Source of the DNA: Pirellulales bacterium
Lineage (GTDB): Bacteria > Planctomycetota > Planctomycetia > Pirellulales > JANQPP01
Length of the DNA: 64,000 bases
Direction of reading: 5' to 3'
NCBI GenBank assembly: GCA_028289405.1
Contig: JANQPP010000109.1
Coordinates: 5,128-69,127 of the forward strand
The stretch's first letter is position 1. Each line of letters begins with the position of its first letter. Under the pieces are notes generated by a model. That model saw nothing but the letters and a program-made list of their open reading frames with translations, searched no databases and was not told the DNA's origin. Both the position numbers and the translations under genes were made by a program. Of the stretch, positions 36,133-36,780 are shown one piece after another.

Positions 36133-36780
36133 ATGCGAAAACTTGGGAGCCCCTTGCTCGGTGTTTCTCTGGCGGCAAGCGGATTAGCGTTGAATGGCTG
36201 CCAACAGTCGGCCGGGCCGAATAGTCCGGCGGCACCCGCGCAGCAAACCGCCGAGACTCCCTCGGCACCAGCCCAGCCTGAGCCACCAGCCGTGTCCGAG
36301 CCGCGGGAAACCCGTGTCGCGGTGGGGGAACCGGCTCCCGCTCTTCGTCTTCCTGATCAGCAAGGCGAAGAACATTCGCTGGAAGAACTGCGGAAGGAGA
36401 ATCTGGTCGCCTTGGTTTTTTATCGTTCGGCGGACTGGTGACCGATCTGCAAAAAGCAGTTGGTGCAACTGCAAGAGTCCCGCGATGAACTGGAAGCCGC
36501 CGGCGTGCAACTGGTGGGCATCAGCTATGATTCGGTGGAAACGCTCAAAAAGTTCTCCGATCAAGCTCAAATCACTTTCCCGCTCCTTGCCGACGAGGGG
36601 AGCAGCACGATCCGCGCCTACGGCATCTACAACGAAGAAGGAAACGGCTATTGCCATCCGGGAACCTTCATCGTCGATCAAGAAGGCGTCGTCCGGTCCG
36701 TGCTGTTTCATGAAGGTTACGTCCAGCGGCATTCGGGCGAGGACATGCTAGAAGCGGTGCAGGCATTGGACTCGGAATAG
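36133..36780 (+). CDS. Peroxiredoxin/AhpC-TSA-like lipoprotein with in-frame TGA at the catalytic position (candidate selenoprotein; otherwise a pseudogene)
   Basis: Track ORFs 36076..36441 and 36460..36780 are in the same frame and are separated only by TGA at 36439-36441. The joined sequence reads LVALVFYRSADW-[TGA]-PICKKQLVQLQESRDELEAAGVQLVGISYDS...FPLLADEG..., the W-C-P-x-C redox motif of AhpC/TSA-redoxin proteins with TGA in place of the first Cys. The N-terminus MRKLGSPLLGVSLAASGLALNGC is lipoprotein-like. Confidence 0.6.
36456..36472 (+). promoter_or_regulatory. Hairpin GCAGTTG-GTG-CAACTGC, 14 nt downstream of the in-frame TGA (candidate bacterial SECIS)
   Basis: Perfect 7-bp stem read directly, with G/U-rich apical nucleotides (GGUG) about 21-25 nt after the UGA. 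This falls in the range reported for bacterial SECIS elements. Confidence 0.4.

Follow-up and report, generated by a model that had tools for sequence, protein, structure and literature searches.

The window analyzed here is a 64,000-nucleotide stretch of contig JANQPP010000109.1 from a Pirellulales bacterium (assembly GCA_028289405.1). We propose that positions 36133-36780 of its forward strand hold a single intact gene whose product has the peroxiredoxin (Prx) fold, is exported, and may be lipid-anchored, and that selenocysteine (Sec) is inserted at its in-frame UGA (36439-36441); we put the probability of this reading at about 0.88. That UGA is the sole in-frame stop in frame 1 before the true stop, the TAG at 36778-36780, and direct translation of the junction gives VALVFYRSADW-TGA-PICKKQLVQLQ. 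The 112 codons 3′ of the TGA contain no additional stop and no frameshift. An earlier interpretation made from the letters of this DNA (the sequence-only reading) held that two same-frame open reading frames (ORFs) are parted by this TGA and nothing else, and the frame 1 translation agrees: the mechanically called ORFs at 36076-36441 and 36460-36780 share one frame. A separate Logan assembly, made from run SRR20820731 (contig L003), carries the identical gene, TGA included, which weighs against the concern that re-sequencing might reveal TGC or TGT at this codon. The Logan gene caller likewise divides the gene into two. There are two candidate start codons in the same frame, ATG 36133, which was the choice of the sequence-only reading and from which residues are counted below, and ATG 36106, which has GGGAG 10 nt upstream and whose equivalent is the start in the Logan gene call. 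The features of the gene are as follows.

36106 or 36133 to 36780, + strand: full coding region for the candidate Prx-like selenoprotein, drawn from the translation, the Logan start, and a Pfam match that runs across the TGA.
36133-36201, + strand: predicted signal peptide MRKLGSPLLGVSLAASGLALNG-C, read from the translation, with a possible lipobox Cys23 at 36199-36201.
After 36201 to approximately 36320, + strand: Pro/Ala-rich linker, a putative tether, from the translation.
36322-36699, + strand: AhpC/TSA (thioredoxin-fold) domain, residues 64-189, from Pfam, alignment to PDB structures, and a structure model.
36439-36441, + strand: UGA proposed to be recoded as U103, the first position of U-P-I-C, located by the codon column in homologues.
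36448-36450, + strand: TGC for Cys106, the presumed resolving partner in UxxC, invariant in the homologue alignment and aligned with the peroxidatic Cys of BCP and AhpE.
36456-36472, + strand: SECIS-like hairpin (SECIS, selenocysteine insertion sequence) GCAGUUG-GUG-CAACUGC, loop 36463-36465, encoded by K-Q-L-V-Q-L-Q and marked out by covariation among homologues.

Comparison with relatives favors Sec at this codon. Scanning a single genome from each species yielded 80 loci, in which the codon at the Sec column is TGA in 57, TGC in 15, and TGT in 5, the remaining 3 being unmatched by the motif expression; TGA also occupies this column in 14 of the 15 metagenome loci found by scanning with the downstream half, as well as in loci L001 and L002. 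The Sec form thus accounts for about three quarters of the sampled species, spread over Planctomycetota, Verrucomicrobiota, Acidobacteriota, Hydrogenedentota, and Myxococcota. TGA forms are found in Verrucomicrobiota among Chthoniobacterales, Pedosphaera, Limisphaerales, and Udaeobacter; in Planctomycetota among Gemmata (Gemmatales), Fimbriiglobus, Limnoglobus, Planctomycetaceae, and Mariniblastus; and elsewhere in Hydrogenedentota, Myxococcota, Nitrospirales, Gemmatimonadota, and Blastocatellia. Cys forms occur chiefly in Opitutaceae, and the full-length Cys homologues recovered by protein search read YRSADW-C-PFC. Alignment of the homologues places the Cys of the Cys-containing forms (TGC or TGT in 20 of the 80 loci) on the TGA column, and the prediction that the TGA stands in place of the first Cys of a W-C-P-x-C active site is borne out at exactly that position. 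Six divergent metagenomic relatives (L095, L096, L097, L098, L100, and L101) keep both the TGA and the hairpin while varying in motif, F-D-W-U-P-[YF]-C or W-U-G-[YF]-C, and the Sec clade is therefore broader than its W-U-P-x-C core.

The hairpin that follows the UGA is conserved together with it. In the window it consists of 7 perfect base pairs beginning 14 nt 3′ of the UGA, with a folding energy of −7.4 kcal/mol for the 17-mer. Its loop begins 22 nt after the UGA, within the 16 to 37 nt of the bacterial SECIS consensus. When the 48 nt from the TGA onward were aligned without gaps for 60 Sec forms, with stem columns 18-24 set against columns 28-34, every one of the 60 retained at least 6 of the 7 pairs. 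Across this alignment 95.9% of stem cells are paired, compared with only 1-44% if the 3′ partner is slid by 1-3 columns. Two of the pairs change in concert: pair 21/31 is GC in 36 forms, AU in 17, and GU in 5, and is broken in 1, and pair 22/30 alternates between CG (34 forms) and UA (25 forms) without a single break. None of 500 shuffles reached the observed covariation, and RNAalifold returns the same helix. All four of the variable columns are synonymous, falling at the third positions of Gln/Glu codons and the first positions of Leu codons, so constraint on the protein cannot explain the coordinated changes; and because both covarying states are present in both Verrucomicrobiota and Planctomycetota, several independent switches must have taken place. 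The loop residues G25-U26 are invariant and form part of a Val codon, GUN. Third-position divergence over codons +1 to +11 falls to 0.33, as against 0.59 elsewhere. It is this comparison across homologues that places the hairpin beyond chance, a result that single-sequence folding would not show.

The Cys forms supply a contrast. The median minimum free energy (MFE) at the hairpin columns is −7.4 in Sec forms and −1.05 in the 20 Cys forms, of which two, L026 and L074, have all 7 pairs; a third, L082, is weaker, with 6 pairs. L026 (3133-3180) comes from the Gemmataceae isolate CJuql4 and combines TGC with a full hairpin, and L074 (from 3181), a Vicinamibacterales metagenome-assembled genome, does the same with a loop that reads GCG and not GUG. 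To judge from their sequences, these three loci look like recent conversions from Sec to Cys.

Beyond the TGA the gene behaves as coding sequence. Downstream of the TGA, the open frame in the 60 Sec forms has a median length of 114 codons and is never shorter than 108, which matches the Cys forms. Pairwise divergence at codon positions 1, 2, and 3 is 0.36, 0.26, and 0.59 downstream of the TGA and 0.29, 0.24, and 0.58 upstream of it. Since the position-wise pattern is alike on both sides, the two halves are under the same protein-level purifying selection. Had orthologues shown an obviously decayed gene, the sequence-only reading would have been in difficulty; instead the homologous frames remain open past the TGA with divergence of the coding type.

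Domain searches, made with Cys substituted for the TGA, found a single AhpC-TSA domain (PF00578) over residues 64-189 with E = 3.6e-36 and a score of 124 bits (cut-off 26); Redoxin (PF08534) also matched, at E = 1.9e-21. The PF00578 match spans the TGA, and the downstream half belongs to the same domain, in keeping with the suggestion that it is not an independent gene. By sequence, the nearest solved structures are the Aeropyrum BCP/PrxQ protein 2cx3 (E = 2.8e-17) and Mycobacterium tuberculosis AhpE. The AlphaFold model of a Cys homologue with 55% identity, P0002, has a pLDDT of 86.6, and in Foldseek it superimposes with TM scores of 0.84-0.88 on BCP/AhpE targets and 0.76-0.83 on ResA.

The active site is not that of a peroxiredoxin. 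Against 2cx3 and AhpE, Sec103 takes the Ser/Thr position of PxxxT/SxxC, the Prx motif, and it is Cys106 that aligns with the peroxidatic Cys. Ser99 stands where the Prx motif has Pro, and Pro177, in H-P-G-T-F, stands where Prx has its catalytic Arg, at the site where thioredoxin-fold oxidoreductases have their cis-Pro. Three of the four Prx catalytic residues are therefore absent, and only the Cys (C106) is kept. The proposal that Sec replaces the peroxidatic Cys consequently has to be given up. The motif W-U-P-I-C resembles that of thioredoxin and ResA. Because the Sec falls on the N-terminal nucleophile of a thioredoxin-type UxxC motif and not on the peroxidatic site, the protein is probably an oxidoreductase and not a peroxidase.

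No NCBIfam model reached its cut-off for the joined product, and several assignments were tried and rejected. A canonical peroxiredoxin (BCP, PrxQ, AhpE, or AhpC) was dismissed on the replacement of Pro, Thr/Ser, and Arg and on subthreshold scores (BCP 74 bits against 140, AhpC 47 against 272). The selenoperoxiredoxin PrxU (NF040737) scores 54.6 bits against 270, and the Sec here lies 3 residues N-terminal of the peroxidatic position. The SelL-related redox protein NF040769 scores 55.5 against 120. Membership in the curated ResA, TlpA, or DsbE families was likewise rejected, every score being under its cut-off (ResA 56.6 against 170, DsbE 26.9 against 123, TlpA 19.6 against 230).

The protein is likely to be exported. 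Judged from the translation, the segment MRKLGSPLLGVSLAASGLALNG-C reads as a predicted signal peptide, and N-terminal hydrophobic, signal-like segments are present in the aligned homologues. The description of the product as a lipoprotein is plausible and no more. The putative lipobox is L-N-G-C, in which Asn at −2 is atypical of the consensus [LVI][ASTVI][GAS]C, and the aligned homologues have ordinary signal peptides without a lipobox. The protein is possibly lipid-anchored.

These observations suggest how the gene might be expressed and how its product might work. The hairpin at 36456-36472, with its G-U-G loop, could act as a bacterial SECIS by recruiting SelB together with Sec-tRNA(Sec) and GTP to a ribosome paused at the UGA; Sec would be inserted there, and the ribosome would proceed through 112 codons to the TAG. 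In the exported protein, Sec103, as an exposed nucleophile, would attack a substrate disulfide or some other oxidized form of sulfur or selenium, with Cys106 then resolving the mixed selenenylsulfide and a periplasmic pathway of the DsbD/CcdA type reducing the resulting Se-S bond again. Recycling of this type is suggested by two features: some relatives (Acidobacteriota) carry a fused DsbD_N domain in which a C-x-x-x-x-C pair is conserved, and a Thioredoxin_7-PDZ protein is encoded upstream of the gene. The gene indicates that this planctomycete probably decodes Sec and exposes a selenol either in the periplasm or at the surface of a membrane.

The Sec form is obscured in the databases by the way in which it has been annotated. 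No NCBIfam or Rfam model appears to capture the clade, members of which are routinely entered in two pieces or in truncated form. About 50 database "redoxin" proteins of approximately 266 residues in NCBI, ENA, and JGI records (P0067-P0113, with several NCBI/ENA Acidobacteria records among them) begin just past the motif. Two such proteins were checked at the DNA level, on L084 (1977-2801), L085 (1977-2804), and L086 (394-1221), and upstream in frame on these loci lies FSRSADW-TGA-PYCKTQLVELQ with a perfect GCAGCUC-GUG-GAGCUGC hairpin. The entries checked are truncated Sec forms of a fusion between the Prx-like domain and DsbD_N, the Cys forms of which have approximately 374 residues. A different error affects three JGI proteins, P0001, P0004, and P0005, which show W at the Sec column. 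The DNA of P0001 and P0005 has TGA there (L001 1046-1048 and L002 742-744), and the W in these two is a product of translation with code 4, in which TGA is Trp; P0004 probably has the same cause. P0001 runs 27 spurious residues beyond its true TGA stop.

Several points weigh against the proposal of a selenoprotein gene. The 64-kb window holds no selA, selB, or selD in Pfam scans of its 30 large ORFs and no tRNA-Sec, so that the Sec trait of this organism is unproven; ARAGORN found no tRNA of any kind in the window, and its scan of 60 related loci gave no tRNA-Sec and one tRNA-Phe only, and a tblastn search of the window with an approximate Escherichia coli SelD query gave no match. Nor does the window contain a second selenoprotein candidate, as judged by TGA-bridged ORFs and a scan for C-x-x-U and U-x-x-C. 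The genome and metagenome scans found no close relative, the best match having 59% identity, and a local ratio of nonsynonymous to synonymous change (dN/dS) therefore cannot speak against decay specific to this lineage. As to the hairpin, the 62 nt after the UGA taken alone fold no better than shuffles (z = 0.33), and the MFE structure of this 62-mer favors an overlapping alternative stem, CUGC/GCAG. The UGA-to-stem spacing in fdhF is 11 nt, compared with 14 nt here. No Rfam SECIS family matches anywhere in the window at gathering thresholds, and at E up to 10 the interval 36380-36560 returns no SECIS family, just two chance matches. The biochemical function is deduced entirely from residues and fusions, and the literature on Prx-like selenoproteins shows no characterized member of this clade. 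We set the alternative stem aside, since it shows no covariation. As to the claim that the hairpin is SECIS-like, covariation upholds it where folding of the single sequence does not show it. Elsewhere in the phylum, published genomes with selA, selB, selC, and selD include those of Gemmata obscuriglobus, Isosphaera pallida, and two isolates from Porphyra (PMC4807772).

Five other explanations deserve consideration, and two of them retain a few per cent of the probability because the Sec machinery of this genome has not been seen. The first, which we consider improbable but the best of the five, is selenium-independent read-through: a near-cognate tRNA for Trp or Cys would decode the UGA, perhaps with help from the hairpin, for example after the Sec machinery had been lost. 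Stem-loops 3′ of stop codons can stimulate read-through, and the Sec machinery is unverified for this genome. Low-level suppression, however, would yield little product. The hairpin has the features expected of a SelB-type element, with a small apical loop, an invariant G-U, and a fixed distance to the UGA, and lineages with the Cys form have mostly swapped the codon and lost the hairpin, the usual result of abandoning Sec.

Marginally less likely than read-through is a pseudogene or an error of sequencing or assembly, in which TGC or TGT has turned into TGA and the gene is either dead or in truth a Cys form. TGA is one base away from both codons, the window lacks the Sec machinery, and no close relative confirms the codon within the lineage. 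Against this stand the separately assembled Logan contig with its identical TGA and the recurrence of TGA at the same column, seen in 57 of the 80 genomes and in all but one of the 15 metagenome loci. The 112 downstream codons are intact, moreover, and the hairpin is perfect (7 bp, loop G-U), a structure that has been lost in most Cys forms.

It is far less probable that the interval holds two genes, a short N-terminal lipoprotein that ends at the TGA and a protein of 105-106 residues that begins at TTG 36460 or GTG 36463. The mechanical ORFs and the Logan annotation both split the gene in this way, and many database entries consist of such fragments, but a single Pfam domain crosses the junction and the Cys homologues are full-length single proteins. 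Both proposed starts fall within the hairpin and lack a Shine-Dalgarno-like sequence ahead of them, and the 266-residue entries are truncated calls with an in-frame TGA upstream. We find it equally hard to credit that the hairpin is an intrinsic terminator of the minus strand and not a SECIS. A consensus scan does report a stem followed by TTTTTGCAGA on the minus strand at 36456-36472; no supported minus-strand gene ends there, however, the T-run is simply the complement of the Lys codons AAAAAG, which vary among homologues (CAGAAG, CAAAAG, AAACAG), and the stem covaries on the coding strand along with the TGA. Reassignment of TGA to Trp or Gly (tables 4 or 25), hinted at by the W in P0001, P0004, and P0005, can be dismissed, since TGA ends 10 of the 23 Pfam-supported genes in the window, which therefore uses the standard code, the code 4 translation of P0001 overruns a real TGA stop into nonsense, and the homologue column is Cys, not Trp.

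The surroundings of the gene are typical of Planctomycetota, with a sulfatase, an extracytoplasmic function (ECF) sigma factor, a Ser/Thr kinase, and a giant Ig-like protein. The Dxr protein encoded in the window shares 62-67% identity with proteins labeled Pirellulaceae, Planctomycetaceae, or Pirellulales. The upstream neighbor (34495-35826, + strand), 280 bp away, encodes an exported protein with Thioredoxin_7 and PDZ domains and the motif C-I-P-C-E-E-C, a Cys form. A "PDZ domain-containing protein, pfam13899, CxxU" is listed among the prokaryotic selenoprotein families (PMC9312934). Searches with tblastn for five neighboring proteins against all related loci gave no matches, and the adjacency of the Thioredoxin_7-PDZ gene is not conserved. 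Farther off, 21446-24458 (+ strand) encodes a VgrG-like spike (Phage_GPD, Phage_base_V, and Gp5_C) followed by a protein with FHA and DUF6931 domains; these domains identify it as one fragment from a locus for type VI secretion or contractile injection. The giant protein (42000-50333, − strand) has 2777 residues and repeated Big_12 Ig-like domains, and two large ORFs, 16205-18523 (772 residues) and 50671-52548 (625 residues), have no Pfam match.

In practical terms, the two fragment ORFs should become one selenoprotein gene, and many database entries need the same correction. The element offers a compact and testable bacterial SECIS, in which a UGA is followed at a constant distance of 14 nt by a 17-nt hairpin with synonymous-site covariation in its stem, and the natural series of Sec-to-Cys conversions, some of them still with the hairpin, provides useful controls. 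As a whole the finding adds incrementally to a known family and introduces no new principle; what is mildly new is the dominance of Sec in the clade, its distribution in the Planctomycetota-Verrucomicrobiota-Chlamydiota (PVC) group and the acidobacteria, and the systematic mis-annotation. We would go further only tentatively, the odds being somewhat against it, in suggesting that the W-U-P-x-C clade constitutes a distinct exported selenoprotein subfamily with stand-alone and DsbD_N-fused forms, a minimal SECIS within K-Q-L-V-[Q/E]-L-Q, and a majority of Sec forms in largely aerobic soil and freshwater lineages. If that were true, the clade could rank among the most frequent selenoproteins of soil bacteria that lack annotation, and could serve as a marker of Sec use in phyla little studied for it.

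Among known systems, the closest is the group of Prx-like thiol:disulfide oxidoreductase selenoproteins ("Prx-like protein" or "Prx-like 1," pfam00578, UxxC; reference WP_010940744.1), described in several surveys (PMC1088965, PMC2398784, PMC9312934, PMC13188914). By definition, a thioredoxin-like UXXC motif stands in this family where true peroxiredoxins have TXXU/TXXC (PMC1088965), and the Global Ocean Sampling (GOS) survey lists it as "Prx-like 1, pfam00578, UxxC" (PMC2398784). The gene in the window shares with it the PF00578 domain, a UxxC motif in which the U is matched by C in aligned Cys homologues, a hairpin directly downstream whose small loop contains G, and a function that is predicted only. 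On its sequence, which carries all of the defining features, the gene is a member of this published family, the match having been made by description and not against WP_010940744.1. Its clade differs in an extended signature, F-[YF]-R-S-A-x-W-U-P-x-C-[KQ]-[KQ]-Q-L-V-[QE]-L-Q, joined to an export signal; in a preponderance of Sec over Cys (57 versus 20 in the sampled genomes); and in its occurrence in Planctomycetota, Verrucomicrobiota, and Acidobacteriota, whereas the family was defined in Deltaproteobacteria.

A second parallel comes from the same phylum. The Porphyra-associated planctomycete isolate P1 has AhpC/TSA and "peroxiredoxin" selenoprotein candidates with SECIS elements (PMC4807772, S9 Table). 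They resemble the present gene, by description and not by sequence, in being of the AhpC/TSA type, in being split at a UGA into two ORFs, in having a hairpin positive in bSECISearch, and in having Cys in their closest matches; the difference is that in isolate P1 the set of selA, selB, selC, and selD was demonstrated. With the SECIS of E. coli fdhF and the Zhang-Gladyshev bSECISearch consensus, the hairpin has in common a stem-loop in the coding region just past the UGA, a small apical loop, and a conserved G(U), but it has only 6-7 bp and neither a bulged U nor an extended lower stem.

The Sec-containing peroxiredoxin PrxU (TxxU, NF040737) shares the fold, the Pfam family, and a Sec in the active-site loop. 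Its Sec replaces the peroxidatic Cys, whereas here the Sec lies 3 residues upstream and the Pro and Arg of Prx are missing. ResA, TlpA, and CcmG (DsbE) resemble the protein in mechanism only, through export, a W-[C/U]-P-x-C motif, and a Pro at the cis-Pro position; in sequence, the protein is nearer to the BCP/AhpE peroxiredoxins. By analogy, we regard these three thiol:disulfide proteins as the best model for how this putative selenoprotein may work.

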